Assembly: GCA_963666515.2 (NCBI GenBank)
Contig: OY762897.2
Location: forward strand, 1,728,001-1,792,000
DNA: 64,000 nucleotides
Direction: 5' to 3'
Source of the DNA: Candidatus Binatia bacterium
GTDB lineage: Bacteria; Desulfobacterota; Binatia; UBA9968; JAJDTQ01
Translations under genes and position numbers: made by a program
The notes under the pieces: generated by a model
The model's database searches: none
What the model was told of the DNA's origin: nothing
Seen by the model: only the letters and a program-made list of their open reading frames with translations
Shown: piece after piece, positions 24,579 to 47,504 of the stretch
Numbering within the stretch: position 1 is the stretch's first letter
Layout of the letters: every line of letters starts with the position of its first letter

Positions 24579-26012
24579 CTACCGCCTACTCCAGGCGCTG
24601 ATCTCCGCCACCAGTTCCGCCCATCTTTCTTCCACCGCCCGCTTCTCCGCGGGAGAGAATACGTTGGGCTCCGGGAACGAATCCTTCCAGTGGAAGGGCT
24701 TGCAGGCGTCGATGAGCACGCGGCCCATGGTGAAGTCTCCTGATTGCTTTTGCTCTGGGGTCAGACGGGGGTCCAGGTCGCTGGTCCAGGCGTCGTGGAG
24801 GAGGTTCAGGGAGGTGGCGGGGTTGGTTCGGGTGCACATGGCCCACAGCACGTCCTTCAGGTCCGACGGGTCGATGTCGTCGTCCACGGCGACGAAGTAG
24901 CCGAACATGCTGCCGGCGGCGGCTATGCCGTTGGCGGTGATGAGGGCCTGCTTGGCGTGGCCGGCGTAGCGCTGCCGAAGGGCGATGACCAGCATGAGGC
25001 CGTGGCAATGGCCCCAGACGCCGGTGACGTCGGTGATGCCGGCGCGCTCCAGGTGGTCCCAGGCCCGCGCCGCGCTGTCCGGGAGGTCGCTGCCGAAGGA
25101 CAGCATCGGCCGTAGCGGCTGGTGGCCGAAGACGATGGGGTCGTCGCGGTGATGTATCTCCTTGATCCGCACCACGCACTCCGGGCCGCTGTGGGAATAG
25201 TAGCCCGGCCATTCGCCGAACGGCCCCTCGTGGGCGGTCTCCTCGTCCGGCGACGGGATCTCACCTTCCACCAGGATATCCGACTCCGCGGGGACCGGAA
25301 GGCCGCTCAGCGGCGCCTTGACCACCTGCACAGGTGCGCCGTGCAGCGCCCCGGCCTGCTCGTACTTGAGGCGGCTGGTGGAGGCCATGAGGGTTAGCGG
25401 CGCGCAGCCCAGCACCACGGCCACCGGGCACGCCTCTCCCCTCGCCCAGTACTTCTCCGCGATGATGCGACCGCGTTTGTGCGCAATGATCCACAGGCTC
25501 AGGCGGTCCCGGTCCTTGACGCAGGCGCGGTAGGTGCCGAAGTTGATCCAGCCGGTCTCCGGGTCGCGGATGATGACGAGGTCCCCGGTGCCGATGTAGT
25601 TGCCGCCGTCCCCGGAATGCCACTTGGGCGCCGGGAACCTGCGAATGTCCGCATCATCCGCCGCCAGCCGGTGCGTTAGCACCGGGCCGTCCGCCACCTC
25701 CTGCGGCTTGGCCGGGACTTGGCGCGCGCGCAGCTTCCGCAGGTGCTGCACCAGCTCCACGGGATGGGCGTCCGAAGGGATGCCCAGGGCCAGGGCGTAG
25801 CGGCGCCGGCTGTGGCGGTAGACGTTGCTGGCGACCCGGAAGCCCGGCGGAAAGCCGGCGAAGTTGTGGAACAGCAGCAGCGGGCCGTCAGATTGCGCAG
25901 ACAGCTCCGACAGCGCGCCTACGTCCGTATCCAGATCCGCGCCGTGAACGTCCTTGACGTCACCCGCGACCCGGGCCGCGTCGATGAATTCTCCGAGAGA
26001 GGCATGACCCAT
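24579..26012 (-). CDS. UbiD family (prFMN-dependent) decarboxylase #1
   Basis: GGNYIGTG, NFGTYR, EGPFGEWPGYY, VDDDIDP...WAMCTR, IDAC. Confidence 0.92.
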   Translation of the reverse strand: MGHASLGEFIDAARVAGDVKDVHGADLDTDVGALSELSAQSDGPLLLFHNFAGFPPGFRVASNVYRHSRRRYALALGIPSDAHPVELVQHLRKLRARQVPAKPQEVADGPVLTHRLAADDADIRRFPAPKWHSGDGGNYIGTGDLVIIRDPETGWINFGTYRACVKDRDRLSLWIIAHKRGRIIAEKYWARGEACPVAVVLGCAPLTLMASTSRLKYEQAGALHGAPVQVVKAPLSGLPVPAESDILVEGEIPSPDEETAHEGPFGEWPGYYSHSGPECVVRIKEIHHRDDPIVFGHQPLRPMLSFGSDLPDSAARAWDHLERAGITDVTGVWGHCHGLMLVIALRQRYAGHAKQALITANGIAAAGSMFGYFVAVDDDIDPSDLKDVLWAMCTRTNPATSLNLLHDAWTSDLDPRLTPEQKQSGDFTMGRVLIDACKPFHWKDSFPEPNVFSPAEKRAVEERWAELVAEISAWSRR

Positions 26013-26042
26013 GGTGGGTTCCCCTTGTGTGTGACTCTCGCT

Positions 26043-26420
26043 TCACAAGACGCCGATGACGTCCATCTGGATGATGGTCTTGCCCTGGACGTCGATCTGC
26101 ATGACGTGCCGGGCCGGGCGGTCGTCCTCGTTGGGGAACATGGCGAGCCACTCCTTGTTGATCAGCGCCCGGTGGCTGAAGTCCTTGAGATAGACGGTGA
26201 CCTTGCCGATGTTGTCGGTGCTGCCGCCGGCGGCCTCCATGACGTTGCGCAGGTTCTCGAAGGCCTGGCGGATCTGCTCTTCCGGGTCATCCGATATGCC
26301 GTCCGGCCCGGCGCCGCTGATCACAGACGGCAGGATCACGTTGCCGATGACGACGCCCGTGGGAATCGGGTTGTTGTGCGAGCCGAGCTTGTCGCTCTTG
26401 ATCATGTTGCGTCGGGCCAT
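26043..26420 (-). CDS. RidA/Rid family enamine/imine deaminase
   Basis: AFENLRNVMEAAGG...KVTVYL...RPARH with catalytic Arg. Confidence 0.85.
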   Translation of the reverse strand: MARRNMIKSDKLGSHNNPIPTGVVIGNVILPSVISGAGPDGISDDPEEQIRQAFENLRNVMEAAGGSTDNIGKVTVYLKDFSHRALINKEWLAMFPNEDDRPARHVMQIDVQGKTIIQMDVIGVL

Positions 26421-26530: not shown

Positions 26531-28243
26531 CTACATCTGCATCCTGCCGCTGAACCGGCGCATGAGCAGGGCCACGCCTACGGCGAAGAACGCCAGGATC
26601 ACGCTGATGATGGATGCCGACTCCATCTGTCCGCCGAGGGCGTGCTCCATCATCAGGATGGCCAGGGGCCGGGTGGAGGCGCCGGTGAGCAGCACCACGT
26701 TGTCCACGTCGCGAATCGAAGCGATGAAGACGATGACGAAGATGGCGATGAGGGTCGGGGCGATGAGCGGCACGGTGATGCGCCACAGGGTGTAGAACCA
26801 GCCGCAGCCGCACACACGGGCGGCGTGCTCCAGCTCCACGGAGATCTGGGTGAAGCTGGTCTTCACCAGGTGCACGCCGATGGGCACCTCCTTGACGATC
26901 AGCACCCAGACGAGGCTCATGAGGGTGCCGTAGAGCGGCACCAGGAACGGCACGGTCAGGAAGATCCACAGGAAGCCCAGGCCGCTCAGGATGCCCGGCA
27001 CGGCCCAGGGCAGCCACAGGAAGACGTTGGCGACGGCGCGGCCCTGGAGCTGGGTGCGCACCAGCGCAAAGCCGAACAGGCAGTAGATGGTCACGCCCAG
27101 CACCGCCGTGGCCAGGCCCAGGATGATGGAGTTCTGCGCCGACCGCAGAAATACCGGGTCTTCCAGCACCGCGCGCCAGTGATCCAGGGTGTAGGGGTCG
27201 GCGATGTCGAAGTAGCCGAAGATCGTCATGCACGAACCCAGGACCAGCGTGCCGATGGGCAGGTAGACCGCGATGCCCACGACAACTATCAGCGCGCCGC
27301 TCACCACGTAACGCAACGAGCCCATGTCCACCTGACGGAACGAGGTGCCGCGGCCCGAGAGGGTGGCGTACTGCCGCCTGGAGGTGAAGTGCTGGTAGAA
27401 CAGCGCCAGCACGAACAGCACGCCAAGGAAGAACGTGCTCAACGTGATGGCCTGGGCGAACTCCGGCGGCTCCCAGGTGATGAGGTCGTAGATGCGGGTG
27501 GCGAAGACGTCGATGTTGGCCGGACGGCCCAGCAGCAACTCCACCTGAAAGGACTCCAGGCCCCGGATCACCCCCGCCAGCCACACCGTCAGCATGGCCG
27601 GCGCGAGCACCGGCACCAGCACGTAACGGAAGGTGCGCCAGGACCCCAGCCCGCACACCCGGGCGGCTTCCTCCAGAGACGCCTCCAGTTGTCGCATGGC
27701 GGGCATGAGCAGGATGGTCATGATGGGGATGGTGCTGGCGGTGAGGTGCACCCAGATGATGCCGGTGAAGGTGTACGGGTTGAGCGTGATCCCCATCGGG
27801 GTGAGGAAGCGGTTGAGCACCCCGTAGTTGGGATCCGCCAGCAGGATCCAGCTTATGGCCAGGGGCAGCGACGGCAGGAAATAGGCGATCCACAGGGACA
27901 GCTCGATGAAGGCCCGCCCGGGCACCCGCACCCGCACCAGCAGCCACGACAGCAGGAAGGCGGCGCTGATGCCGATGAGCGTGCGCACGCTCAGAAGGAA
28001 GCTGTAGCCGATGGCGTCCAGCGTCTTCCGGTTGGCGAACCCGCTGACCCATCCGTCGAACCCGAACACGAACGGGTCGGTGGGATCGGCCGTGTTGACG
28101 CTGTTCATGAGGATGAAGACCACCGGGGGCAGACTCACCACCCCGGCCGCGGCCAGCAGCAGCGACGCCAAGCTCCATTCCCGAAGAAGGAACCGCCCCC
28201 GTCGCGACACGGTATGGCCGGCCATACCTGTCAGGTCGGCCAT
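26531..28243 (-). CDS. FbpB/ThiP-type double-domain ABC permease
   Basis: Two EAA loops (LEEAARVCG, LEHAARVCG); about 12 TM segments. Confidence 0.9.
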   Translation of the reverse strand: MADLTGMAGHTVSRRGRFLLREWSLASLLLAAAGVVSLPPVVFILMNSVNTADPTDPFVFGFDGWVSGFANRKTLDAIGYSFLLSVRTLIGISAAFLLSWLLVRVRVPGRAFIELSLWIAYFLPSLPLAISWILLADPNYGVLNRFLTPMGITLNPYTFTGIIWVHLTASTIPIMTILLMPAMRQLEASLEEAARVCGLGSWRTFRYVLVPVLAPAMLTVWLAGVIRGLESFQVELLLGRPANIDVFATRIYDLITWEPPEFAQAITLSTFFLGVLFVLALFYQHFTSRRQYATLSGRGTSFRQVDMGSLRYVVSGALIVVVGIAVYLPIGTLVLGSCMTIFGYFDIADPYTLDHWRAVLEDPVFLRSAQNSIILGLATAVLGVTIYCLFGFALVRTQLQGRAVANVFLWLPWAVPGILSGLGFLWIFLTVPFLVPLYGTLMSLVWVLIVKEVPIGVHLVKTSFTQISVELEHAARVCGCGWFYTLWRITVPLIAPTLIAIFVIVFIASIRDVDNVVLLTGASTRPLAILMMEHALGGQMESASIISVILAFFAVGVALLMRRFSGRMQM

Positions 28244-29319
28244 ACCTTCAACCGTCCGTCCTTGACGCGGAGGAGGACCCGGTCGCCGGCAACTTGCGAA
28301 TCGTCCTCCAGGGAAATGACGAACTCGACGCCGCAGGTCTCCAGGGCCAGTTCGTAGCGATCTCCCAGGTAGATGAGGTTGTGGACCGCCGCCCGCAACT
28401 CGCCGGCGCCGGGCTCCCGCGCCTCGCCCACCAGTTCCAGGTCCTCGGGGCGCAGCCCGACCATCAGGCTCTCGCCGGCAGCGACGCCTCCCGCGTCCGG
28501 CAGCGCGAGCCTGCAGCCGTCGGCGAGCCGGGCGTACGCGGCGCCCCCGTCATCCACCCGCTCCGCATCCAGGTGGATGCTCTTGCCGAGAAACGCGTGC
28601 ACGAAGGGATTCACCGGGTCCTTGTAAAGCTCGCCGGGCGATCCCAACTGCTGGATCCGCCCGTCGCGCATGACCAGGATTCGGTCGGCCAGGGTCATGG
28701 CTTCCACCTGGTCGTGGGTGACGAACAGGAAGGTGGCCTTGAGCTTGGCCTGAAGGCCCTTCAACTCCACCCGCATCTGCTGGCGGAGTTGCGCGTCCAG
28801 GTTGCTCAGGGGCTCGTCCAGCAAGAGCAGGTCGGGCTCGTAGACCAGCGCCCGGGCGAGCGACAGGCGTTGCTGCTGGCCGCCGCTCAGGTCGGTGCCA
28901 TTGCGCTCTTCCAGTCCCCCCAGATCGACGAACTCAAGCATCTTCCGCACCCGCTCGCGCCGGTCCTGCCGGGGGTGGCCGCGCACCTTGAGTGGCAACG
29001 CCACCTGATCACCGCAGGTCATGTGCGGCCAGATGGCGAAGGACTGGAACACCATGCCGGTGTTGCGCTTCTCCGGCGGGACGAAGATACCCTTCTCCGG
29101 ATCGCTCACGACCTTGCCGTTCAAGACGATCTCGCCGGAGTCCGGGCGCTCCAGCCCGGCCAGGGTCCGCAGCGTCGTGCTCTTGCCGCAGCCGCTGGGT
29201 CCCAGGATGACCAGGATCTCGCCGCCGTAGACGTCGAAGCTGACGCCGTCCACCGCACGCACGTCACCGTAGCACTTCACGAGGTCGCGGACGCTGACGA
29301 TGGGCGCGGCGGACGGCAC
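28231..29319 (-). CDS. ABC transporter ATP-binding protein
   Basis: GPSGCGKST, LSGGQQQR, LLLDEP. Confidence 0.93.
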   Translation of the reverse strand: MPSAAPIVSVRDLVKCYGDVRAVDGVSFDVYGGEILVILGPSGCGKSTTLRTLAGLERPDSGEIVLNGKVVSDPEKGIFVPPEKRNTGMVFQSFAIWPHMTCGDQVALPLKVRGHPRQDRRERVRKMLEFVDLGGLEERNGTDLSGGQQQRLSLARALVYEPDLLLLDEPLSNLDAQLRQQMRVELKGLQAKLKATFLFVTHDQVEAMTLADRILVMRDGRIQQLGSPGELYKDPVNPFVHAFLGKSIHLDAERVDDGGAAYARLADGCRLALPDAGGVAAGESLMVGLRPEDLELVGEAREPGAGELRAAVHNLIYLGDRYELALETCGVEFVISLEDDSQVAGDRVLLRVKDGRLKVWPT

Positions 29320-29325
29320 GGCACC

Positions 29326-30417
29326 TTACCGCCCGAGGAGTTCCACCAAGCGCTTGCGCGCCCGCGGGCGCTCCTTGGTGTAGAACTCGTAGGCGTAGTC
29401 GTCGTGGTACTTGACGCCCTCCTTGGGAAGCACGTAGTCGTCCAGACCCTCGCTCACGTCCAGCCGGCGGCTCTTCTGCCGCACGTGCCGCTCGAACACC
29501 TGCTGGCCTTCCTGGTCCGCGAGCCAGTTGAGCAGGACCACCGCTCCGTTGGGGTTCGGCGCGCCCTTGACCAGCTTGATCACGCCGCTGCCGCCGGTGA
29601 GCTTGCCGGGAAGGTCTTTGAACCGCACCACGCCGATGGGCAGCCCCTTCTTGCGCAGCGGATCGAACTGCCGGGCCACGGCGCCCAGACCCACCGAATA
29701 GACGCCCCGCGCGATCCAGTCGGCGAGCTGGCGGTGATTGGCGGTGTAGACCACTTCCTGCCCCTTGTAGAGGTTGACCACGTACTCGTCGCCGAGCATG
29801 GCCAGGAAAAAGGACGCGGCCCCCTTGCCGGCGCCGCCGCGCCGCGGATCATAGCTGGCGATCTTGCCCTTGAGCTTGGGGTCCAGAAGATGCTTGACGG
29901 AATTGATCTCCTCGGCCTTGAGCTTCGTGGTGTTGTAGATGCCCGACACGTTCACGTACTCGATCAACTGGAGCATGTACTTGTGCTCGGGGTCGTTCCA
30001 CTTGAGCGCGCCGCCGCGCCACTGCTTGCCGTCGGTCACCGAGGGCAGCAGGAGATTGGACTTCATCTCACGCAGACATCCCTTGGGGTAGAGCCTCGTG
30101 ATCTCGCTGTTGCCCGACAACAGCACGTCCATGGACGGACGGTTGGCGCTGCACTCCCGCCTGGCCACAGCCGTCAGCTCCGAGCCGCGCATGGAGCGCA
30201 ACTCCACGTCGATGCCGTACTTGGCCTTGAACTTCTTCGTCACGTCCTGGCGGAACTTGGGCATACCCAGGTTGGTTCCGAGCACGACCTTCCCTTCCTT
30301 CTTGGCCGCGGCAAGGACGTCGTCCCACTTCCCGGCCTGGGCCGGAGCCGCGCCCAGGGCCGCGAGGACCATCGCGAGCGCCACCAGAAAACATCCATTC
30401 CGTTTATTCCGTTTCAT
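29326..30417 (-). CDS. ABC substrate-binding protein (FbpA/AfuA-like cluster)
   Basis: Signal peptide ending AQA; WDDVLAAAKKEGKV, LLDPKLKGKI, APNPN.A; SD AGGAGG before ATG 30417. Confidence 0.88.
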   Translation of the reverse strand: MKRNKRNGCFLVALAMVLAALGAAPAQAGKWDDVLAAAKKEGKVVLGTNLGMPKFRQDVTKKFKAKYGIDVELRSMRGSELTAVARRECSANRPSMDVLLSGNSEITRLYPKGCLREMKSNLLLPSVTDGKQWRGGALKWNDPEHKYMLQLIEYVNVSGIYNTTKLKAEEINSVKHLLDPKLKGKIASYDPRRGGAGKGAASFFLAMLGDEYVVNLYKGQEVVYTANHRQLADWIARGVYSVGLGAVARQFDPLRKKGLPIGVVRFKDLPGKLTGGSGVIKLVKGAPNPNGAVVLLNWLADQEGQQVFERHVRQKSRRLDVSEGLDDYVLPKEGVKYHDDYAYEFYTKERPRARKRLVELLGR

Positions 30418-30567: not shown

Positions 30568-31440
30568 CTACCAGTACCGCCGCCGGTACGTGTCGATGAG
30601 TATCTCGTCCTCGTCCTGCGAGAGAAACTCCGTCAGCACCCGGTTGAACTCCGCGGGCTGCTCGAACTGAGGCCAGTGCGCGGCCTTGTCCAGCAACACG
30701 AAGCGCGATCCCGGCACACTCTGGTGCACCTTCTCGGCCACGTGCCACGGACACGTGGGGTTGTGGGTGGTCCAGAAGAACAGCATGGGGCATTGCAGCT
30801 TGGGGATCTTCGGGATGAGGTCGTAGCCGCGCATGCGGATGAAACCCTGGACGCGTTCGCGATACTCCGGGTTCGTGTAAATCTTGAGCCGGATGTCCAC
30901 CAGCTCGTCGGGCAGCGTCGCCGGATCGTGGAACAGCCACTCCATGCGCTTCCGGATGGTCTCCTTGGTGGGATCGCCCACCGCCGCCTTCGTCAGCGCG
31001 TCGAGCTGGTGCATTCCGGTGGTGTACCCGTGCTCGTTGGACGGAATGCCGCCGACGATGAGGCCCAGCTTGCTCACACGTTCCGGATGATGGTGGGTGG
31101 TGTAGACGCTGATCTGCCCGCCCTGGGACTCCCCCACCAGGCAGCCCCGTTCCACGCCCGCGGCGTCCATGAAGTCCAGCAGGTGCCTGGAGAACGCCTC
31201 CATGTCGTAGGTGATGGCGGGCTTGTCGGTGAAGCCGTGGCCCAGGTAGTCTATGGCCAGCACCCGGAACCGTTCGGACAGCGGCAGCAGGTTCCGCACC
31301 CACGTCTCCGCGTGGCCGCCGCCGCCGTGAAGCAGGATCACGGCCTCGCCCTCCCCCTTCTCGAAGCAGCGCGTGCGCACGCCCGCGGCGTCATAGTAGG
31401 TCTCGTACTTCATGAATTCTGCGAGTTCTTCGGAAAACAT
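30568..31440 (-). CDS. Alpha/beta hydrolase, BphD/MhpC (meta-cleavage product hydrolase)-like
   Basis: LLHGGGG, GESQGG nucleophile elbow, AAHWPQFE. Confidence 0.82.
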   Translation of the reverse strand: MFSEELAEFMKYETYYDAAGVRTRCFEKGEGEAVILLHGGGGHAETWVRNLLPLSERFRVLAIDYLGHGFTDKPAITYDMEAFSRHLLDFMDAAGVERGCLVGESQGGQISVYTTHHHPERVSKLGLIVGGIPSNEHGYTTGMHQLDALTKAAVGDPTKETIRKRMEWLFHDPATLPDELVDIRLKIYTNPEYRERVQGFIRMRGYDLIPKIPKLQCPMLFFWTTHNPTCPWHVAEKVHQSVPGSRFVLLDKAAHWPQFEQPAEFNRVLTEFLSQDEDEILIDTYRRRYW

Positions 31441-31466
31441 TTAACCTCCTTGAAGCACTCGAAACG

Positions 31467-31584
31467 GTCCTTCGACTTCGCTCGCCCTTCGACAGGCTCA
31501 GGACTCGCTACGCTCAGGACGAACGGTCTTGAAAAACGCGCTCCCTCCGTTCGTCCTGAGCGTAGCGAAGCGGAGTCGAAGGAC
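31467..31584. repeat. REPIN-like inverted repeat (family C, GTCCTTCGACTTCGCTACGCTCAGGACGAACGG)
   Basis: 31505-31526 pairs with 31547-31568; outer arms also pair; partial copy at 54201-54221. Confidence 0.8.
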
Positions 31585-31608
31585 GTTCACGCGCTTCCTC
31601 CTTTCATC

Positions 31609-33048
31609 CTACCGCGCGCCCTTCAACCAATCGCCAAGGCGCCACTTCTCCCACGTGGCATCCCGCCGTTCCTTGCTGAACAGGTTCACCGGCGAGAACT
31701 CCTTCAACCGCTCGAAGGGGCGGCAGCCGTTGAGGATCAGGCGTCGGTAGGGAAGCGGCTTGCGGATCTCGCGCTCCTCCGCGGTGCGCAACGGGTCCAG
31801 CCGCCAGGCGCTCGGCACCGTGCTCTTGTGAACGCCCTCGCCGGCGTCCAGCCGCGTCCCCAGGGCCCAGAAGACCTCGATGGGGTCCTCGGGGTTCACG
31901 TCGTCGTCCACAAGGATGTTGATGCGGCAGGGGGCGCGGCTCTCCTGCAGCGCCTTGATGATGCGCGGCACGTCGTCGGGCGTCTTCTGGGCCACGCTCA
32001 CCACCACCGCGCCCATCTTGACCAGATCCGTGACCCGCGTCACCGGGAGCCCATCCTTCTCCAGCCGCGACCACAGACCGGTCATGGAGCGCATGGGCAG
32101 CGAGAAGGCATAGGACTCGCGGTACGGCTTGAACGGCGGCGCGCCGAACAGGATGGGGTCGTTGCGGTAGTAAAGAGCCGTCACGCGGATCACCGGCTCC
32201 GGCACCGAGGTGATCATGTAGTACCCGGTCCACTCGCCGAAGGGTCCCTCCTGACGGGATTCCACGTCGGGAGGCGGCACCTCGCCCTCGAAGGCAATCT
32301 CCGAACCGGCGGAGATGGGGAGGCCGGTCATGCGCCCCTTGATGACGTCCACGGGCTCGCCGCAGAGGAAGCCGACGTACTCGTACTCGGGCACGCCGGG
32401 CGGACAGCCGGTGGAGCCCGAGGCGGTGAGGAAAACCACCGGCTCCGGTGCCACCGACACCGCCACCGGGCACGCCTCGCCCTTGTCCCAGTACTTGCGC
32501 AGGATCGAGCTGCCGTCGTTGGCGGGCTCGCAGAAGAGCCCGGTGGTCTTGCCGTCGTGTACCTGGAGGCGGTAGCTGCCGAGGTTCACGAAGCCTGTGT
32601 CCGGGTCTTTGAGGATCACGGCGACGCCGGAGCCGATGTAGGGGCCTCCGTCCAACTCGTGCCAGACCGGCACCGGAATGCGGCCGAGGTCCGCGTCGTC
32701 TCCGGTCAGCACGTTCTCCAGCAGCGGGCTCGTGTCCACCACCCGCGGGGCGATGCCCCTGTAATCCGCCCACTTCGCCTTCCACGCACGCATGGCGTCG
32801 GCCTCGGGTGTGTCGGGGTGGGTGCCGATGGCCATCAGCGAGCGCTGCCGCGTGCTGGCCACGTTGGAGGCCACGCGGAACCCGGCGGGGTAGCCGGGGA
32901 TGTCGTCGAACAGGAGCGCCGGGCCGCGGTGGTGGAAGGCCATCTCGGCGATGCAGCCGATCTCGTACTCCAGGCTTGCGCCGTTCACCCGCTTGAGGTC
33001 GCCGCGGCGGTCCAGCTCTTCCAGGAACATTCTCAGGTCGGTGATCAT
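31609..33048 (-). CDS. UbiD family decarboxylase #2
   Basis: DGGPYIG, NLGSYR, EGPFGEWTGYY, VDDDVNP. Confidence 0.92.
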   Translation of the reverse strand: MITDLRMFLEELDRRGDLKRVNGASLEYEIGCIAEMAFHHRGPALLFDDIPGYPAGFRVASNVASTRQRSLMAIGTHPDTPEADAMRAWKAKWADYRGIAPRVVDTSPLLENVLTGDDADLGRIPVPVWHELDGGPYIGSGVAVILKDPDTGFVNLGSYRLQVHDGKTTGLFCEPANDGSSILRKYWDKGEACPVAVSVAPEPVVFLTASGSTGCPPGVPEYEYVGFLCGEPVDVIKGRMTGLPISAGSEIAFEGEVPPPDVESRQEGPFGEWTGYYMITSVPEPVIRVTALYYRNDPILFGAPPFKPYRESYAFSLPMRSMTGLWSRLEKDGLPVTRVTDLVKMGAVVVSVAQKTPDDVPRIIKALQESRAPCRINILVDDDVNPEDPIEVFWALGTRLDAGEGVHKSTVPSAWRLDPLRTAEEREIRKPLPYRRLILNGCRPFERLKEFSPVNLFSKERRDATWEKWRLGDWLKGAR

Positions 33049-33067
33049 GGCGCCGTCCCGCTCCGCG

Positions 33068-34192: not shown

Positions 34193-34212
34193 GGTCTCTC
34201 CTTGTTTACTCG

Positions 34213-34287: not shown

Positions 34288-34291
34288 TGAC

Positions 34292-36789: not shown

Positions 36790-36841
36790 TCGCTACCAAC
36801 GGCCGTTGGGTCCCGCGGGCTCCGCCTCACCGCCACGGCCC

Positions 36842-37810: not shown

Positions 37811-37943
37811 CTATGGCCTCCCGTCTCCTGCTTGCTCCCGCGGAAATCCTCGGACAGGCTTCTACCGTTCGTACGGCGCCGTGCCGCCCAACGCCAAAGC
37901 CGTGAGAACTGCCAGCACTGCCGGCAGAACGGTTCGCTGCGCT

Positions 37944-39577: not shown

Positions 39578-39602
39578 GGTAGACAATGGGTTCAGGCCGG
39601 CG

Positions 39603-40481: not shown

Positions 40482-41306
40482 TCATTCGGCTCCGCCGTTG
40501 TCCCGGCCTTTCGCCAGCAGAGCCTCGAGTGCCGCAACGCGAGCTTGCGCCGCCCCCGCCGCCCGCTCTGCATCCGCTGTTGCCCGCTCCGCCTCCGCTA
40601 CTGCCCGCTCCGCCTCCTGCCGCGCCTGTTTCTCGCGATCTCGTTCCTGTTCAGCCCACCGGCGCGCCCGTCTTTCATCTCGCCACCCCTGTTCGTTGCG
40701 CCGACGCGTCTCGTTCGATTCCACAAGGTTCAGCAGGTATTCTCCCGTAGCCGCATCGCGGAACCGCAACCCCCCGCTCCCCAGCCGCAACTCCAGCCCC
40801 AGCACCCGGCTCCACATCGCCGAGCCGCCGTCCGCCAGCTCCGTCTCCGCCAATCTCCGGTACTGCCCCGACACCAACTCCTCGCCCTGCAGCCGGGGCG
40901 ACAGATAGTCCCCCGTGGGATCGTATTGCCAGTACTCCGTCACTCCAAGCTCCCGATACAGATCCCGCTTCCTCCCCTGGTCTTCCCGCCGCGTGCTCCG
41001 CGACGTCACCTCCAGCACCCAGTCCGGCCCCTTCGGCTCCCGCCACAACAGGTACGAAGACCGGTCATGGGCCGGCGCCCCGAACACCACGAACACGTCC
41101 GGCGCCACCCGCGCCTTCACGTTCCCCTCCTCGTAGTAGATCAGCATGTTGCCGGCCACGTACACGTCGGAGCGGTGACGGTAATGGTCACGCAGGGCGT
41201 TGCGCGCGTAGGTGAGCGGATCGAACTGAAAATCGCTCTCCGCCAACGGCATGCCGTCGGAGCTGGGATAGTCGATTTCAACCGGAACGGGTGCATCTCT
41301 CTCCAT
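40482..41306 (-). CDS. Uma2 family endonuclease with coiled-coil tail (copy 1)
   Basis: Core nearly identical to neighbour; heptad repeats in tail. Confidence 0.9.
   Translation of the reverse strand: MERDAPVPVEIDYPSSDGMPLAESDFQFDPLTYARNALRDHYRHRSDVYVAGNMLIYYEEGNVKARVAPDVFVVFGAPAHDRSSYLLWREPKGPDWVLEVTSRSTRREDQGRKRDLYRELGVTEYWQYDPTGDYLSPRLQGEELVSGQYRRLAETELADGGSAMWSRVLGLELRLGSGGLRFRDAATGEYLLNLVESNETRRRNEQGWRDERRARRWAEQERDREKQARQEAERAVAEAERATADAERAAGAAQARVAALEALLAKGRDNGGAE
40561..40620. repeat. 21-bp tandem repeats encoding AERAxAx heptads
   Basis: gcccgctctgcatccgctgtt / gcccgctccgcctccgctact / gcccgctccgcctcctgc. Confidence 0.7.
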
Positions 41307-41385: not shown

Positions 41386-42486
41386 CTAACCCCTGCTTCC
41401 CTGGTCCAGCGGCTCCAGCCGCACGGTGACGCCGTTCTTCTCCAACTCGCGGTTGTACTCCTCCCGGATGGAAGGGTCTTCCTTCTCGTAGCGGATCTTG
41501 AACGACTCGGCGAAGGGGTCGGTGTCCTGGGCGGTGCGGGCCGGATGGAAGCTCCGGCCGGAGCCGTAGCGCAACCCGGTGCCCCGGAACGCCAGCATCC
41601 GGTACCCGCCCTTGCCGCTGTTGAAGTGTTGGTGGAACTCGTTGGTGCGGGGCGCCACCACGGCGTAGGGAACGGTCGGGACCTTGCGGCGCTCCTTCTC
41701 CTGCCCCGGCATGAACATCAACTCGTAGCCTTCGCCGCCGATGACGATGACGTGGGCGCCGGCGCCGTGCCGGTGGGCCGTCACGTAAGTCCCCTCGGAC
41801 GCCTCCATGATGTGCATGCCGATGGAACAGCTCGCCATGGACAGGCGCATGATGGCCGTGCGGTTGCCGCGCTCGGGATAGGGGTCGAGTCTGAAGGTGC
41901 GGATGTCGGGGATGAAGTTGGTCTCGAAGAGCCGCAGATTCCACTGCCGGCCCTCGTCGGTGAAGAAGTCCGGCATGGACATGGAGAAGCGATCCGTGAA
42001 CGAATATGGGTTATTAAAGACGAAATCGAGATTATGATAGAGGTTTATGACGTGCGCCGCATTGGTGCCGAACAGCAGCCGGCAGGGCTCGTCCCCGGAG
42101 CTGTTGAACTCCTGGTGCCAGGCATTCAGCGGGATGGACAGCAGCGACCCCTCCTCCCATTCCACGGTGTGCTTCTTCTCACCCTCCTGCCAGATGACGG
42201 AGGCGCCGCGTCCCTGCATCACGTACATGATCGCGTCATAGATGTGGTGCTCAGGCTTCAACTCACCCTTGGGCGGGATCTCGACAATCTGGAGGCTGTT
42301 GGTCTCCTGCTCCCCGAGGCGTGTGTAGGCGGCCTTGCCGCCGCGCCGCTCCCACTCGCCCAACTCCAGGGTGTTGAGATTCTCCAACGCGCTGCCCTCG
42401 TAGAGCGGCACACCCTCCTGCTTCACGAATGCCTGGTAGGAGCTCTTGACGTACCACTGATCGAAACCGGGACGCGCATCCGACAT
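41386..42486 (-). CDS. Bicupin protein #2 (paralog of 33068-34192)
   Basis: EHHIYD..MYV..G.G, IPLNAWHQ, ETNFIPD, AHRHGAG, FHQHFN. Confidence 0.8.
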   Translation of the reverse strand: MSDARPGFDQWYVKSSYQAFVKQEGVPLYEGSALENLNTLELGEWERRGGKAAYTRLGEQETNSLQIVEIPPKGELKPEHHIYDAIMYVMQGRGASVIWQEGEKKHTVEWEEGSLLSIPLNAWHQEFNSSGDEPCRLLFGTNAAHVINLYHNLDFVFNNPYSFTDRFSMSMPDFFTDEGRQWNLRLFETNFIPDIRTFRLDPYPERGNRTAIMRLSMASCSIGMHIMEASEGTYVTAHRHGAGAHVIVIGGEGYELMFMPGQEKERRKVPTVPYAVVAPRTNEFHQHFNSGKGGYRMLAFRGTGLRYGSGRSFHPARTAQDTDPFAESFKIRYEKEDPSIREEYNRELEKNGVTVRLEPLDQGSRG

Positions 42487-42544: not shown

Positions 42545-43339
42545 TCAGCCGCTGTCCCGCTTGGAACGCACCGGCTTGCCAGCACGCACGTCCTGGGTGA
42601 ACTGCTCCGCGGCCTCCAGGAGCGCCACCGCCACCGGGCCGTAGTTGGAGCGGCGCCGGTCCAGCTCGTCCGCTGCCAGGCCGATGGTGGGATGGGTCAC
42701 GCCGATCTGGCCGTCACAGTGGTCCCCGGCGCCGAAGCCGGCGATAGTGGGCACCCGCACCTCCGCGGTGATCCGCTGCGCCAGTTCCGCGCTGATACCA
42801 GTGAGCAGGAGCGAGAACGATCCCGCCTTCACCAGTTCCCGGGCGTCACGCCACACCTGCTCCTCGTCCACCGAGCTGGAACGGAAATCGCCCGCGCCGA
42901 TGTTGGCCATGGGCGTGCTGCCCATGTGCGCCAGCACCGGAATGCCCGCCTTGACGAGGGCCGCCACCGTGGAGGCGTACTCGGCTCCCACCTCCAGCTT
43001 CACCGCCTGGACCCCGGCCTCCTGGATGAGCCGGCCGGCATTGACGACGGCCTGCTCGTCGTTCACCTGGTAGCTCATGAACGGCATGTCCCCCACCACC
43101 AGGGCCCGGTCGGAGCCGCGGGCAGCGGCCCGCGCCATTATGACCATCTCGTCCACGGTGACCTCGTTGCTGTCGTCGTGGCCGAGGGCGTACCGCCCGC
43201 CGCTGTCCCCCACCAGGATCACGTCCACGCCCGCCCGGTCGACGATGCGCGCCACGGTGTAGTCGTAAGCGGTCATGACGACGATCTTCTGCTTCTCCGC
43301 CTTCATCCGCTGCAAATCCACGATCGATACTCTGCTCAT
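42545..43339 (-). CDS. PanB-like (ketopantoate hydroxymethyltransferase fold) protein, divergent
   Basis: TAYDY, VGDS, GDMPFMSY, VKLE, GAG..CDGQ present; the Glu181-equivalent position reads LLLTG. Confidence 0.85.
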   Translation of the reverse strand: MSRVSIVDLQRMKAEKQKIVVMTAYDYTVARIVDRAGVDVILVGDSGGRYALGHDDSNEVTVDEMVIMARAAARGSDRALVVGDMPFMSYQVNDEQAVVNAGRLIQEAGVQAVKLEVGAEYASTVAALVKAGIPVLAHMGSTPMANIGAGDFRSSSVDEEQVWRDARELVKAGSFSLLLTGISAELAQRITAEVRVPTIAGFGAGDHCDGQIGVTHPTIGLAADELDRRRSNYGPVAVALLEAAEQFTQDVRAGKPVRSKRDSG

Positions 43340-43501: not shown

Positions 43502-44707
43502 TCAACATCCCACTTGGTGCGACATGTACACCTCGCGCCGTTCCTTCGCCGATTCCAGCACGCCCAGACACACCTCCAGGGTCGCCTCTCCCCAACGGCC
43601 GTCGTGGAACGGCTGGCGGTCGTGGAGGATGGCGTCGTGGAACTCGCGCAGTTCCGCCTCCCGGCCGCGGGCACCCTGCTCCACCGGTATCTCGCGGCGG
43701 CCGTGGTCGTCATAGATGTAGAGGCCGTCTCGGGATTGGCGGATCTCGCCCTTCTCGCAGGTCACCACGGTGAGGCCGAAGAACGGTTGGTGGCGCGGTC
43801 CGGCTTCGGACTCGGTCCCCGGCCCGCCGCCGGCGGCGCCATAGCGCCACGCCTCCAGCTTTCGCTCCAGTCCGTCGCTGCGCTCGGCCCCCTCGCCGAG
43901 GCTACGGAAGAACGCCCTCGCCTTGGGGTGCCTGTCGGGGTCCTTGGGAAGGCCACCCTCGCCGAGCCCCCATACCAACTCGGCGGTGTCGAAATAGGCA
44001 TAGCCGCTGTACACCAGGCTCGCGGGCACGCCGTCTTCGAACTCCAGGTGACAGGCGTAGTGTCCCTCGCCTGGACGCGTGGGGTCGCCAATCCCCGCCG
44101 TGGCCCGGACGCTGCGCACGAGCCCGCCCCCGATCAGCCGCACGATGTCGAACTGATGCGGCCCCTGGTTCAGCACGACGCCGCGGCTCATGCGGATGTC
44201 GTGGTCGGAGAAAGGCCGGTACATGTGGTCCTTGTAGTAGGCGGTGGAGATCATCAACAGCTTCCCCAACTCGCCGCCGGCCACGACCTCCGCCATCTTC
44301 CGCACCGGCGGATCGAAGCTGTGGGTGTGGCCCGACATGAGCTTGACCCCGTGCCGGTCGGCCGCGGCGTTCATGGCCTCGGCCTCGTCCAGCGACAGCG
44401 CCATGGGCTTCTCGACGATCACGTGCTTGCCCCGCTCCATGGCGGCGATGGAGTGCTCGGCGTGGTACTCGTGGGGCGTGGCGACGTAGACGGCGTCCAC
44501 ATCCTCCCTGTCGCACAGTTTTTGCACCGAGTCGAACGTCCGCGCGCCGAACTCCCGTGCAAACCTGTCCAGGGCTTGCCTGCGAAGGTCGGCGGCGCCT
44601 GTGAGCCGCACGAAAGGCAACGGCGCTATCTCCGGCAGGATACGGGCCGCGGCCATGCCGAGGCCGGCGATTCCGAGCCGCAGCCTGGTGTCCGCGCCTT
44701 CGCTCAT
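43502..44707 (-). CDS. Gfo/Idh/MocA oxidoreductase (OphB/CbaB-like) #2
   Basis: GIAGLG, VEKP, GHTHSFD, NQGPHQFD, GRWGEATLEVC; ATGA overlap with the Rieske gene. Confidence 0.88.
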   Translation of the reverse strand: MSEGADTRLRLGIAGLGMAAARILPEIAPLPFVRLTGAADLRRQALDRFAREFGARTFDSVQKLCDREDVDAVYVATPHEYHAEHSIAAMERGKHVIVEKPMALSLDEAEAMNAAADRHGVKLMSGHTHSFDPPVRKMAEVVAGGELGKLLMISTAYYKDHMYRPFSDHDIRMSRGVVLNQGPHQFDIVRLIGGGLVRSVRATAGIGDPTRPGEGHYACHLEFEDGVPASLVYSGYAYFDTAELVWGLGEGGLPKDPDRHPKARAFFRSLGEGAERSDGLERKLEAWRYGAAGGGPGTESEAGPRHQPFFGLTVVTCEKGEIRQSRDGLYIYDDHGRREIPVEQGARGREAELREFHDAILHDRQPFHDGRWGEATLEVCLGVLESAKERREVYMSHQVGC

Positions 44708-46002
44708 GGAGTCGCCAGGGTCTGCCAGCCCCGCCCTTCGGCCACGAGGTGCTCCAGGTAGTCCTGCCATGGCGTGGCGCTCGGGATCACGCCGTAGGTC
44801 GCCACGATCTCGGGGAAGCGGTTGGCCTCGGGGTCCCGGACCACATGGGGCGGATCGTTGCCGTCCTCAACGTCCTTGATGGCCTTGATCAGCACCTTGC
44901 GCGACGCCACGATGGGGATGTCCGACTCCACCAAGTGCTCGTTGGTCCGATCCTGCACCAGCCCGGCCCCCTCCACCACGCACAGGTCCTGGATCGGGTT
45001 GGGGTAGTCGATGCCGCTGTAGACTCGGTCCTGCATGAGGCTCCGGTCCTGACCGTAGCGGTTGGCCTTGCTCGCCATCGGCCGGTAGTCCGGCGCCGGC
45101 GCCCACTGGCTGGCGCGCATGGTGGCGGCCTCCCTGTCCAGCGCCTTCTCGCGGCTGAAGGTGATGACGTACTTCCAGTGGTGGGTGTCGTCGATGGGCA
45201 CGTGCCAGTTGATGGCGCCGCCGGGAATGACCGTCATGCTCGGCAGCACGAAGGTGGCGGCGCGGATGTAGTTCCGTTCGTCATCCATGCGCCGCACCTT
45301 GCAGATGCGGATGCCCAGGTCCAGGAGCTGGGCGTGGGTCCGCTCCGTGCCGGGCGACGGCCCGCGCCCGTTGACCCGTTCCACGTCGCCGAACCGGTCC
45401 CGTATCTTCCGCACCTCCTCCTCGCTCATGGCGGAAAGGTCGCGCTTCACGAAGTGCAGATAGTTGTTGTGGAAGATGTCGATGTTGCCCTCGTTGCCCT
45501 GGAGGTAGTTGCACTCGCTGTAGAGCTTGGTGGGCGCCACCTGATCGTCCGGCACCGTCAGCCAGTCGTAGGCGGGCAACAGCGGCGGCTCGCCGGGGCC
45601 CGTGTACGCGAAGATGATCCCGCTCTTCTCGCGGCACGGGTAGGCGGGCTGGCGGATGGCATCGCGGTGCTCGCCGCCGTTGGGTTCTCCAGGCTGGTCC
45701 AGGCAGCGCCCTTCGATGTCGTAGAGCCAGCCGTGATAGATGCAGCGGAGGCCGCCGTCCTCCAGGCGGCCATAGCTCAGGTCCGCGCCACGGTGGGCGC
45801 AGTGGATGCCGAGCAATCCCGGCCTGCCCCGGTCATCCCGGAACATGACGAGGTCCTCGCCCAGGAGCCTCACGGGGAGCGGCGGGCCGCCGGGCGGAAG
45901 CTCCTCGGAGAGCGCCGCCGGCTGCCAGTAGCGGCGCATAAGCTCGCCGCAGGGTGTGCCGCGGTCGGTCCGGGTCAGTAGTTCATTCTCGCCGCTGTCC
46001 AT
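44704..46002 (-). CDS. Rieske oxygenase alpha (phthalate 4,5-dioxygenase family) #2
   Basis: GTPCGELMRRYW, CAHRG...CIYHG, EGNIDIFH...LH, IQD; SD AGGAG. Confidence 0.92.
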   Translation of the reverse strand: MDSGENELLTRTDRGTPCGELMRRYWQPAALSEELPPGGPPLPVRLLGEDLVMFRDDRGRPGLLGIHCAHRGADLSYGRLEDGGLRCIYHGWLYDIEGRCLDQPGEPNGGEHRDAIRQPAYPCREKSGIIFAYTGPGEPPLLPAYDWLTVPDDQVAPTKLYSECNYLQGNEGNIDIFHNNYLHFVKRDLSAMSEEEVRKIRDRFGDVERVNGRGPSPGTERTHAQLLDLGIRICKVRRMDDERNYIRAATFVLPSMTVIPGGAINWHVPIDDTHHWKYVITFSREKALDREAATMRASQWAPAPDYRPMASKANRYGQDRSLMQDRVYSGIDYPNPIQDLCVVEGAGLVQDRTNEHLVESDIPIVASRKVLIKAIKDVEDGNDPPHVVRDPEANRFPEIVATYGVIPSATPWQDYLEHLVAEGRGWQTLATP

Positions 46003-46034
46003 AGCCTGCTCCTGCCGGTGGACGGTTCCCCGGT

Positions 46035-47504
46035 TCAACGCGATAGCAGATGGCCCCACTTGGCGCGGATCTTCTGCCGCAGCTCCGGGCCGTTGACGCA
46101 CACGGGCGGGAACGCATCGATCCAGTCGTAGGGACGGCACGCGTCGATGACGAGGTTGTGCGCCGTGTAGGAGGCGCGGCCGTGGGCCGCGTCGGGGTTC
46201 GAGCGCTCCTCCGGTGGTATGCGCGGGTCCAGTTGCCAGACCGCGGTGCCGGGAATGACCTGCACGCCCTCCTCGGGGCGGCACCGGCTGGCCACCGCCC
46301 ACAGCACCTCCTTCGCATCGGTGACGTCGATGTCATCGTCCACGATGATCCAGGTCTGGTGCCCGTTGTAGCGGTCGCCGCCAGGCACGAGCACCCTGAT
46401 CACGTCGCGGACGTGGTCTCGGTACATCTGCTCCACGGCGACGGCGTAGAGGTGCGGCCGCGCCAGGGCCACGATCCGGCCGATACCGGGTATGCCGGCC
46501 TTCTCCAGGCGCTGCTTCGCCTCGAGGTTGTCGCCCCCGAGACTGGCGAAGTAGTCGCACCCCACCGGCCGCGTGGGCGAGGCGCCGAAGATGATGGGGT
46601 CGTTACGGTGATAGACCGCATGCACCTCGATACGCGTCTCGGGCCGGCGGCCGTGGGCGTAGTAGCCGGTCCACTCGCCGAACGGCCCCTCGGGCAGGAG
46701 GCCTCCGTCGGCATCGTCCGGGGACGGGATGAAGCCCTCGATGACTATCTCCGCGGCGGCCGGCATGGGCAGCCCGGTAACGGCGCCCGGTATGACCGGA
46801 TAGGGGCTGCCGTGCAGGTAGCCGGCCACCTCGAACTCCGACACCCCCTCCGGGGTGCGGTAGACGCTCGACGAGCCCAGCGCGGTCAGCACCGGCTCCT
46901 GGCCCACGGAGATGAGCACCGGGCACTTCTCGCCCCGGTCCCAGTACTTGCGGCGGATCACGTCGCCGTGCTTCCCGTGCTCGGTGAAGATGGTGCATGT
47001 GGACTTGTCGTGGACCGCCACGCGGTAGGCGCCGGAGTTGACGAATCCGCTGTCAGGGTCTTTCTGGATGACGCAGACGCCGGTGCCGATGTAGCGGCCG
47101 CCGTCGTTCTCGTGCCACTTGGGCGTGGGGAACTTGAAGAGGTCCACCGCGTCCCCGGTCATCACGTTCTCGAGGACGGGTCCGCCGGAGACTTCCTCGG
47201 GCGGCGTCGCCCGAAAGTCCTTGAGCTTCCGGGCAAAACGCTCCGCCACTCCGTCGATGGAAGGCTCCAGCGCGATGCCCAAGGCAGTGGCCGTGCGCTT
47301 GGGGGTGTTGAACAGGTTGACCGCGACCCGGTAGCCCTTGGGGTAGTCCCGGATCTCGTCGAACAGGAGCGCCGGCCCCCGCTGCTCGGTGACCAGCTCG
47401 GCGATGCCGCCGATCTCCTCCTGCCAGTCGCACCCCAGCACCGTTTCCAATTCGCCCAGCTCATCCAGCCTGTGCAGGTACTCCCGAAGATCGTTCCAGA
47501 GCAT
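46035..47504 (-). CDS. UbiD family decarboxylase #4
   Basis: DGGRYIGTG, NSGAYR, EGPFGEWTGYY, VDDDID...WAVASR, IDACRP. Confidence 0.92.
   Translation of the reverse strand: MLWNDLREYLHRLDELGELETVLGCDWQEEIGGIAELVTEQRGPALLFDEIRDYPKGYRVAVNLFNTPKRTATALGIALEPSIDGVAERFARKLKDFRATPPEEVSGGPVLENVMTGDAVDLFKFPTPKWHENDGGRYIGTGVCVIQKDPDSGFVNSGAYRVAVHDKSTCTIFTEHGKHGDVIRRKYWDRGEKCPVLISVGQEPVLTALGSSSVYRTPEGVSEFEVAGYLHGSPYPVIPGAVTGLPMPAAAEIVIEGFIPSPDDADGGLLPEGPFGEWTGYYAHGRRPETRIEVHAVYHRNDPIIFGASPTRPVGCDYFASLGGDNLEAKQRLEKAGIPGIGRIVALARPHLYAVAVEQMYRDHVRDVIRVLVPGGDRYNGHQTWIIVDDDIDVTDAKEVLWAVASRCRPEEGVQVIPGTAVWQLDPRIPPEERSNPDAAHGRASYTAHNLVIDACRPYDWIDAFPPVCVNGPELRQKIRAKWGHLLSR

Follow-up and report, generated by a model that had tools for sequence, protein, structure and literature searches.

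How four UbiD-type decarboxylases could work together with two Rieske oxygenases in a single block of genes is the question raised by positions 24579-47504 of the DNA studied here. Decarboxylases that use prenylated flavin mononucleotide (prFMN) are known mainly from ubiquinone synthesis, from the decarboxylation of phenolic and heteroaromatic acids and from anaerobic, coenzyme A (CoA)-dependent phthalate routes. The block lies in a stretch of 64,000 nucleotides (nt) from a Candidatus Binatia bacterium (assembly GCA_963666515.2, contig OY762897.2), here called the window. We examined its gene content, the paralogy within it, the family membership of its Rieske oxygenases and Gfo/Idh/MocA-type (Gfo) dehydrogenases, its conservation in relatives and the recurrence of the gene combination, all of which can be observed directly. 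We read the block as encoding two parallel versions of a phthalate-like aerobic pathway in which UbiD enzymes carry out the decarboxylation. We assign this reading, which is drawn from sequence, a probability of roughly 0.55. The predicted targets are most likely carboxylated, possibly N-substituted, aromatic acids.

Because the window is rich in GC (0.61-0.70), open reading frames (ORFs) were chosen by third-position GC content (GC3). The ORFs were scanned against Pfam and NCBIfam profiles and the start codons were then refined. This yielded 19 genes between 24579 and 47504, all on the minus strand and forming one co-oriented block of ~23 kb. It contains 4 UbiD genes, 2 Rieske genes, 2 Gfo genes, 2 bicupins, a LigB gene, a PanB-like gene, an alpha/beta hydrolase, an ATP-binding cassette (ABC) importer, a RidA gene and 2 Uma2 genes. 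All gene types named in the original prediction were found in the claimed places, order and orientation. Three of its labels could be sharpened. The gene called 'ABC' does belong to a transporter, which is a complete importer with substrate-binding protein (SBP), ATPase and permease. The 'DesZ-like' enzyme is an extradiol dioxygenase of a divergent class III LigB type (best solved relative LigB beta, E 6e-16). The 'cupins' have the cupin fold and are bicupins of about 370 amino acids (aa) from an uncharacterised family. In the direction of transcription the genes are:

46035-47504, minus strand: UbiD_D, first gene of module 2, with the domains UbiD_N, UbiD and UbiD_C (489 aa)
44704-46002, minus strand: Rieske2, phthalate-family alpha subunit with Rieske and LigXa_C domains (432 aa)
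43502-44707, minus strand: Gfo2, Gfo/Idh/MocA cis-diol dehydrogenase by its Pfam domains; alternative start at 44770
42545-43339, minus strand: PanB-like protein, divergent second copy of ketopantoate hydroxymethyltransferase (PF02548 match)
41386-42486, minus strand: bicupin2 (Cupin_2 match; 366 aa)
40482-41306, minus strand: Uma2, first of the tandem (PF05685 match)
39603-40406, minus strand: Uma2, second of the tandem (PF05685 match; the pair measures 267 and 274 aa)
38234-39577, minus strand: UbiD_C, HmfF-like, with UbiD and UbiD_C domains; alternative start at 39619
36842-37810, minus strand: LigB-type class III extradiol dioxygenase (PF02900 match; 322 aa)
35515-36780, minus strand: Rieske1, phthalate-family alpha subunit (Rieske PF00355 and PF19301 matches)
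34292-35518, minus strand: Gfo1, cis-dihydrodiol dehydrogenase by its N- and C-terminal Gfo Pfam domains (408 aa)
33068-34192, minus strand: bicupin1, putative 3-His ring-cleaving dioxygenase (AlphaFold2 model and fold matches; 374 aa)
31609-33048, minus strand: UbiD_B (Pfam domains; 479 aa)
30568-31440, minus strand: alpha/beta hydrolase resembling meta-cleavage-product hydrolases (Abhydrolase_1 match; 290 aa)
29326-30417, minus strand: SBP of the ABC importer (SBP_bac_1/8/11)
28231-29319, minus strand: ATPase of the ABC importer (ABC_tran with TOBE_2)
26531-28243, minus strand: fused double permease of the ABC importer (two BPD_transp_1 domains)
26043-26420, minus strand: RidA/YjgF-family protein (PF01042, 49.8 bits; 125 aa)
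24579-26012, minus strand: UbiD_A, PhdA-like, with all three UbiD domains (477 aa)

An all-against-all comparison revealed that parts of the block are repeated. Module 1 consists of UbiD_C, LigB, Rieske1, Gfo1, bicupin1, UbiD_B and the hydrolase; module 2 of UbiD_D, Rieske2, Gfo2, the PanB-like gene and bicupin2. Between them the Rieske proteins share 60.6% identity, the Gfo proteins 52.0% and the bicupins 30.2%. The remaining genes form a tail of the ABC importer, whose genes abut or overlap, RidA and UbiD_A. The single long route that had been proposed was not borne out, and from these comparisons the block is better read as two paralogous modules with a tail. Most intergenic gaps within it are 6-168 nt, and several genes overlap. 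Consensus scans were uninformative for promoters, with 0 promoter-like sites, and for terminators, with fewer sites than in shuffled sequences (6 vs 9.3; 1 vs 2.1). For 30568-39826 no RNA sequencing run was listed as containing the stretch, and the four runs, all from a single study, that do contain it have no recorded type.

The evidence is strongest for the Rieske and Gfo pair. The best solved relative of Rieske1 is the phthalate 4,5-dioxygenase (PDO) PDO_KF1 (7fjl, E 3.3e-67), followed by RO_CH34 (7fhr) and 9ina. D178, H181, H186 and D338 of Rieske1 align with D178, H181, H186 and D343 of PDO_KF1. The iron ligands (H181, H186, D338) and the bridging D178 are thus kept, and of 73 clade members 72-73 have the same residues there. 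In the available part of the PDO_KF1 study, Arg207 and Arg244 are given as substrate determinants, with Ser179, Ser182, Phe278 and Phe280 as the remaining phthalate-binding residues (PMC8649396). Rieske1 retains the carboxylate-binding R207, R231 and R241, the last being the equivalent of R244, and R207 and R241 also align in Rieske2 and in a paralogue at a third locus of the same genome. Relative to PDO its pocket shows the changes S179L, S182V, F278K and F280V; the pocket residues recorded for Rieske2 are R207, R231, R241, N266 and K278. Among the 73 non-orthologous clade members K278 occurs in 69, N266 in 70, R231 in 60, R241 in 56 and R207 in 43, the last in a poorly aligned part of the clade alignment. 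Since the two serines and two phenylalanines are replaced, with K278 in 69/73, Rieske1 is not an orthologue of phthalate 4,5-dioxygenase. Judged by these residues, it belongs to a distinct phthalate-family clade with an extra cationic pocket residue.

For Gfo1 the best solved relative is a 4,5-dihydroxyphthalate (cis-diol) dehydrogenase (7wzd, E 2e-94). The next matches are the uncharacterised 3moi, a 'probable dehydrogenase' (4e-83), and named generic Gfo proteins such as glucose-fructose oxidoreductase (~1e-23). The stop codon of Rieske2, a gene that starts with an ATG behind a Shine-Dalgarno-like motif, overlaps the ATG of Gfo2 at 44707 (ATGA arrangement), and the start of Gfo1 abuts or overlaps the stop of Rieske1. 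Family membership, the homology of the Gfo cluster and these overlapping codons make cis-dihydroxylation followed by rearomatisation the best-supported step. The original prediction had placed both pairs in the phthalate dioxygenase and phthalate cis-dihydrodiol dehydrogenase lineages, which the matches to 7fjl and 7wzd and an identity of 42.8%, recorded for both Gfo1 and Gfo2, to a Massilia Gfo bear out. The comparators that go with this lineage are OphA2/OphB and CbaA/CbaB, in which dihydroxylation is followed by rearomatisation.

The UbiD genes fall into two kinds. According to the available part of PMC10850782, PhdA of Mycobacterium fortuitum (PDB 7pda) is a prFMN-dependent phenazine-1-carboxylate decarboxylase that acts on unhydroxylated N-heteroaromatic acids with R159 and E269 as catalytic residues. 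UbiD_A matches PhdA over its full length (E 1.4e-143, residues 16-465), and PhdA is also the best solved relative of UbiD_D (E 3.4e-103) and UbiD_B (E 1e-96). R159 and E269 correspond to the motifs NxGxYR and EGPFGE. Both are kept in all three proteins, as NFGTYR in UbiD_A, NLGSYR in UbiD_B and NSGAYR in UbiD_D, each with EGPFGE. These three share 35-43% identity and possess the N-terminal, rift and C-terminal domains; UbiD_C, whose identity to them is 26-29%, comprises just the rift and C-terminal domains and finds its best solved relative in HmfF (6h6v, E 8.4e-42). A single UbiX was detected in the genome (TIGR00421 above cut-off; C1:2221310-2221855), at a distance of about 446 kb from the block. 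Homologues of the canonical 4,5-dihydroxyphthalate decarboxylase number 17 in the genome, none within the window. The earlier statement that known Rieske/Gfo pathways use non-UbiD decarboxylases or none agrees with a 2026 review of phthalate degradation, the available part of which places UbiD only in anaerobic CoA-dependent routes (PMC13040137).

Is this gene combination seen elsewhere? Our collection comprised 72 related loci, each centred on a Rieske homologue with 50-65% identity; Binatia, Chloroflexota, Dehalococcoidia, Thermoleophilaceae and records bearing a delta-proteobacteria label are represented. Neighbourhoods were counted at 46 non-orthologous loci with at least 3 kb on either side, requiring a co-oriented partner within 3 kb. 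UbiD was found at 20, Gfo at 15, both at 12, the bicupin at 13, LigB at 10 and an SBP at 18. Several loci repeat the order UbiD, Rieske, Gfo, among them L037, L050, L055, L059, L069, L071, L073 and L094. Pairwise distances of the partners correlated with those of the Rieske proteins for UbiD (r 0.54, 33 pairs) and Gfo (r 0.85, 22 pairs), values reached in 0 of 2000 permutations, and for the bicupin (r 0.73, 8 pairs; 19 of 2000 permutations). The third locus of the same genome (C1:4070103-4081796, L098) repeats LigB, Rieske, bicupin, UbiD and Gfo, its Rieske being 60% identical to Rieske1. It further carries an aldo-keto reductase, an opposed second Rieske, a dihydroxyphthalate-decarboxylase-like gene and an SBP. 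This locus is kept in more congeners than the block of the window (L040, L041, L043, L044, L046, L051).

Within the genus, Rieske1 orthologues of at least 92% identity were present in 7 of 27 other genomes. All 7 also have a second Rieske gene, in the same orientation and at a distance of 8-12 kb, the pair reaching across the record ends in G006. Five regions were compared, and all 17 non-Uma2 genes were co-linear at 84-98% amino acid identity in 5/5 congeners. Some of these genes had been dropped by the GC3 filter and were recovered from the unfiltered ORFs (Gfo1 of G002 and G007, Rieske2 of G007, RidA of G002 and G032). Conservation of gene order in relatives had been set beforehand as a check, and the co-linearity in 5/5 congeners speaks for the block. 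Divergent from UbiD_D, a 141-aa ORF without a Pfam match at E 0.001 (47664-48089, plus strand) stands beside the cluster in 5/5 congeners as well, with 79-90% identity; it could encode a regulator or a small accessory protein.

The two Uma2 genes have a different history. In 5/5 congeners their slot is occupied by a second alpha/beta hydrolase of 283-285 aa, and G039 has nothing corresponding to the segment 39579-41363. We therefore regard the Uma2 pair as a strain-specific replacement outside the pathway, which changes the reading first proposed. A remnant of the second hydrolase was sought in the window and the genome and not found, the best match being at most 31% identical. The two Uma2 proteins are 80% identical. 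Direct repeats spaced by 879-900 nt, one of 300 nt with 81% and one of 156 nt with 71% nt identity, mark the pair as a tandem duplication, its copies lying about 0.9 kb from each other. Both genes matched PDC-S03 (Uma2-type) in PADLOC, but only weakly. The GC3 of the pair (0.78-0.79) is lower than that of the neighbours, and a third Uma2 copy is located at C1:2765155-2765895. A terminator-like hairpin with a T-run (41373-41354, minus strand) was noted just 3' of bicupin2, across the left junction of the replacement. In G032 an extra set of SBP, ATPase and permease genes lies between module 2 and UbiD_C (L026/L034), and in G007 an extra ORF of 421 aa between UbiD_C and LigB (L025). From the sequences of the relatives, the slot between module 2 and UbiD_C is an insertion hot spot.

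Ring cleavage could be served by two types of enzyme. The LigB protein (PF02900, 93.5 bits; best solved relative 1b4u) scored below every NCBIfam subfamily cut-off, e.g. 108 vs 290 bits, and by these profile scores is a divergent class III extradiol dioxygenase. The bicupin gave no NCBIfam match, and a PDB sequence search yielded nothing beyond auxin-binding protein (E 0.0025). Its family counts at least 1536 members in a metagenome protein set, named only as generic cupins and found in Binatia, Chloroflexota, Limnocylindria and Acidoferrales; a protein atlas contained only unnamed cupin clusters from Binatota and Chloroflexota. Bicupin2 aligns across the whole family. An AlphaFold2 model of bicupin1, built from a 43-sequence alignment, reached a pLDDT of 89.5. 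Foldseek returned only generic bicupins (TM-scores 0.40-0.51). A wide search with VIA-align ranked gentisate 1,2-dioxygenase first (3bu7, Z 21.6, root-mean-square deviation 3.5, 264 residues aligned), followed by salicylate 1,2-dioxygenase (2phd, Z 21.2) and 2d40 (Z 20.1). Oxalate decarboxylase and seed globulins, which are generic bicupins, scored Z about 18, a margin of only about 3 Z. Invariant histidines (H230, H232, H286 and H288 in trimmed numbering) are located in the C-terminal cupin. Together with the ranking of the gentisate and salicylate folds they make a 3-His ring-cleaving dioxygenase a reasonable but unproven reading of the model.

Genes for the later steps are also at hand. The alpha/beta hydrolase matches HsaD (114.7 bits) and BphD (88.5 bits) far below their cut-offs and thus weakly resembles C-C (meta-cleavage-product) hydrolases. 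On the same strand, 4 kb past the block and beyond a divergent second ABC transporter, the following genes were found:

about 51410-52450, minus strand: DmpG-like aldolase (HMGL-like with DmpG_comm; start approximate)
about 52450-53400, minus strand: DmpF-like acetaldehyde dehydrogenase (AcetDehyd-dimer; start approximate)
53364-54155, minus strand: FAA-hydrolase-family hydratase/decarboxylase (FAA_hydrolase match)

G032 likewise has an FAA hydrolase close to the cluster. The hydrolase and dmp lower pathway named earlier are accordingly present in the Pfam and NCBIfam assignments, the former in the block and dmpFG with the FAA-hydrolase gene nearby. The PanB-like protein scores just below the cut-off of NF001452 (269.6 vs 272 bits) and just above that of TIGR00222 (214.9 vs 207.55). 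As the other PanB of the genome (C1:2954064-2954873) reaches 405 and 366 bits, respectively, that gene is the likelier true PanB and the copy in the cluster is probably neofunctionalised. Loci L030, L057 and L090 likewise combine PanB-like genes with LigB or UbiD.

Put together, these genes suggest a sequence of reactions in which all catalytic steps are predictions, and so are the point at which UbiD acts, the substrates and the electron donor. The ABC importer would take up the acid, a phthalate-family Rieske oxygenase would convert it to a cis-dihydrodiol and the translationally coupled Gfo dehydrogenase would rearomatise this to an o-dihydroxy acid. Family membership and gene coupling point to these three steps. 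A carboxyl group would then be removed by a prFMN-dependent UbiD, standing in for the 4,5- or 3,4-dihydroxyphthalate decarboxylases that are usual here, as indicated by recurrent adjacency and by the lack of a canonical decarboxylase in the block. The ring may be opened by the LigB extradiol dioxygenase in module 1 or by the 3-His bicupin. The product would pass to the meta-cleavage-product-type hydrolase and on to the dmpFG/FAA-hydrolase genes 4 kb away; from ring cleavage onwards the assignments follow family-level similarity. Of the route in the original prediction, the Rieske/Gfo lineage, the lower-pathway genes and the conserved order could be retained, and its unbroken length could not.

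Several observations weigh against this phthalate-like route. A reductase is the first concern. The profile PF00175 (FNR-type NAD-binding) had 0 matches in the 98%-complete genome, and hence none in the cluster, and the same profile matched in 11 of 14 genomes used as a control; the PDR/VanB reductase of Massilia had 0 matches among the called ORFs of the genome. Ten phthalate-family Rieske oxygenases are encoded there, for which an electron donor was thus not found. A plant-type ferredoxin ORF of 128 aa is located at C1:4253491-4253718. The UbiD proteins raise a second concern. All four score below the cut-off of TIGR00148 (209-238 vs 244.85 bits), and UbiD_C, with the motifs NAGMYN and DGPSGE, has Asn for the conserved Arg. 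This Arg is present in 34 of 36 full-length UbiD ORFs of the genome and missing in 2. Of 8 distant UbiD_C-like homologues 6 also have Asn (NxGxYN), often with R or L for the first Glu of EGPFGE; UbiD_C-like genes were found at L033, L042, L049, L057, L085 and L090. The group looks, from its motifs, like a clade with an altered catalytic triad.

The other objections concern ring cleavage and gene arrangement. In gentisate dioxygenases the 3-His Fe(II) site is in the N-terminal cupin; in the bicupin it is in the C-terminal one. In this strain the hydrolase of module 2 has been replaced by Uma2. The largest gap of the block (423 nt, UbiD_C to LigB) and others of 150-168 nt allow several transcription units. 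Moreover, only 4 of the 37 UbiD ORFs lie within 5 kb of this type of Rieske or Gfo, so the association is confined to the block and the third locus, and the majority of UbiDs have other roles. With 39 UbiD matches in the genome, proximity is weaker evidence here than elsewhere. Finally, the related loci are not independent, many being from few Binatia genomes and some being mutual orthologues, and the neighbourhood counts and correlations therefore overstate the support.

The order of events could also be reversed. The UbiD enzymes may act first and trim polycarboxylated or heteroaromatic acids before the Rieske and Gfo step, candidates being benzene tri- and tetracarboxylates or phenazine-, quinoline- and pyridine-carboxylates. 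UbiD_A may then be a decarboxylase of the phenazine-1-carboxylate type, and RidA may handle imines or enamines from the cleavage of N-rings. The full-length match of UbiD_A to PhdA and the matches of UbiD_B (1e-96) and UbiD_D (3e-103) favour this order, given the unhydroxylated N-heteroaromatic acids on which PhdA acts in the available part of its description (PMC10850782), although similarity at this level does not fix the substrate, and no PhdB or UbiX is adjacent. A UbiD gene stands directly 5' of Rieske-Gfo in many loci, but the order of genes does not fix that of reactions. Lys278 in place of Phe278 of PDO, found in 69/73 clade members, adds positive charge to the pocket, RidA recurs beside Rieske-Gfo (L037, L050, L070, L083), and four decarboxylases stand against only two oxygenases. 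On the other side, the known phenolic-acid UbiDs prefer rings that are already hydroxylated. We consider UbiD action ahead of the oxygenase the main alternative, tentative and on balance unlikely; no result obtained here separates it from the phthalate-like route with later decarboxylation.

It could further be argued that the genes are merely neighbours, in an island of independent small operons whose UbiD density reflects a lineage-wide expansion. The numbers of UbiD genes lend this some weight. The genome has 39 matches to PF01977, compared with 26-41 in 18 sampled congeners and 23-69 in other families of the order, 23-69 also being the range across 31 genomes of the order; of 60 further genomes sampled from the phylum, 57 had 0-5 and three at least 41. 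Similarly, 109 matches to Amidohydro_2 (PF04909, E 1e-10 or better) were counted. Most UbiDs of the genome stand in other contexts, gaps reach 423 nt in the block, and the relatives' blocks contain insertions (the ABC transporter in G032, the ORF in G007). The notable UbiD count of the original prediction is thus partly an order-wide expansion. The local density nevertheless stands out, as 4 of 37 UbiD ORFs within 23 kb form the densest UbiD stretch of the genome, far above uniform scatter, under which 0.008 such windows would be expected. Against mere co-location there are also the reappearance of the same families, differently arranged, at paralogous loci and across phyla, the co-variation of distances between adjacent UbiD and Rieske proteins, the mostly short gaps and the overlapping genes. 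We regard independent small operons as improbable.

A cluster for natural-product biosynthesis, or a CoA-dependent anaerobic route like that with phthaloyl-CoA decarboxylase, was rejected on gene content and is very improbable, since, despite UbiD enzymes in polyketide and bagremycin biosynthesis with weak BagN/FevL matches here, a UbiD decarboxylase in anaerobic phthalate routes (PMC13040137, available part) and an ADP-forming acyl-CoA synthetase with an enoyl-CoA hydratase 15 kb from the block on the other strand, Pfam revealed no polyketide synthase, non-ribosomal peptide synthetase, tailoring set, CoA ligase or CoA transferase in the block, which instead has an importer, two O2-dependent oxygenase types, a meta-cleavage-product-type hydrolase and a dmpFG lower pathway.

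The surroundings of the block contain further genes for related chemistry. A neighbouring SBP gene is located at 48117-49280. The window itself has five Amidohydro_2 and three Amdase-like genes (12453-24505 and 14843-56952). Two Amdase/maleate-isomerase-like genes (54229-56952) are placed next to the large subunit of a molybdenum hydroxylase (793 aa) and a 4Fe-4S protein (56932-60218). This content presumably recalls the catabolism of N-heterocycles of the nicotinate or picolinate type. Elsewhere the genome encodes 6 class II aldolase/adducin-like proteins. The expansions of UbiD, Amidohydro_2 and dihydroxyphthalate-decarboxylase-like genes, together with 1 UbiX, suggest a decarboxylation-centred lifestyle.

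A more far-reaching reading, which we think rather doubtful, would see in Binatia and some Chloroflexota a modular, repeatedly duplicated toolkit of UbiD, Lys278-type Rieske, Gfo, 3-His bicupin or LigB, and SBP. Such a toolkit would let them mineralise, aerobically and in a way not yet described, aromatic polycarboxylic acids or carboxylated N-heteroaromatics of humic, lignin-derived or pyrogenic origin, with prFMN enzymes stripping carboxyl groups around O2-dependent dihydroxylation. A non-canonical electron donor for the oxygenases and altered chemistry in the Arg-to-Asn UbiD clade would be part of it. If the coupling is real, prenylated-flavin decarboxylases would belong to the regular equipment of aerobic ring-hydroxylating pathways in a soil lineage that is abundant and uncultured. 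The locus provides screenable paired enzymes (UbiD with Rieske and Gfo), an uncharacterised bicupin family of more than 1500 members and a concrete hypothesis of how soil bacteria attack carboxyl-rich aromatic matter. Its value is mainly in these testable enzyme partners and in the pointer to a lineage rich in decarboxylation. A literature search, with subscription journals and supplements outside its coverage, found nothing on UbiD in Binatia; the listed papers on aromatic compounds and decarboxylases in Binatia or Binatota appeared, from their titles and abstract openings, to deal with other subjects. For UbiD together with Rieske and dihydrodiol dehydrogenase it returned only the review that, in its available part, places UbiD in anaerobic routes (PMC13040137).

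Finally, we compared the block with known systems. PhdA is the closest solved relative of UbiD_A, UbiD_B and UbiD_D and has the catalytic Arg and Glu in common with them; unlike PhdA, they have no adjacent UbiX/PhdB, and their Rieske/Gfo neighbourhood is not described for PhdA in the available part of its report (PMC10850782). UbiD_C shares a similarly short length with its best solved relative HmfF, a 2,5-furandicarboxylate decarboxylase. Gentisate and salicylate 1,2-dioxygenases are the best fold matches of bicupin1 (247-264 residues aligned), with an identity of only 11-16%. The anaerobic phthaloyl-CoA and isophthalyl-CoA decarboxylases are likewise of the UbiD family and catalyse a decarboxylation in phthalate catabolism, according to the available part of PMC13040137. 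Those routes are CoA-dependent and oxygen-independent and have UbiX inside the cluster, whereas the block has O2-dependent oxygenases, no CoA-activating enzyme and a distant UbiX.

A plasmid cluster of Mycolicibacterium rufum, known from annotation, has the composition ring-hydroxylating dioxygenase (alpha/beta)-Gfo-extradiol-hydrolase-dmpEFG. Identity to the module 1 proteins is 52% for its Gfo, 43% for its extradiol dioxygenase and 38% for its alpha/beta hydrolase, and, as near the block, an FAA-hydrolase/DmpF/DmpG set is nearby, in M. rufum adjacent. Its oxygenase, unlike those of the block, has two subunits (alpha/beta); the cluster also carries a class II aldolase/adducin-type protein and is without UbiD, bicupin and PanB-like genes. 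The canonical phthalate operon of Massilia consists of PDO, 4,5-dihydroxyphthalate decarboxylase, PDR/VanB and Gfo. The block differs from it in having UbiD genes in the place of the canonical decarboxylase, and LigB or bicupin ring cleavage followed by a meta-type lower pathway; identities are only ~32% (Rieske) and 42.8% (Gfo). What the two share is a Rieske oxygenase of the phthalate family that consists of the alpha subunit only and conserves the iron ligands and the carboxylate-binding arginines, together with a diol dehydrogenase of the Gfo type. The operon logic matches that of the Massilia plasmid. Most likely, then, the block is a variant of the known phthalate route with UbiD as the decarboxylase.

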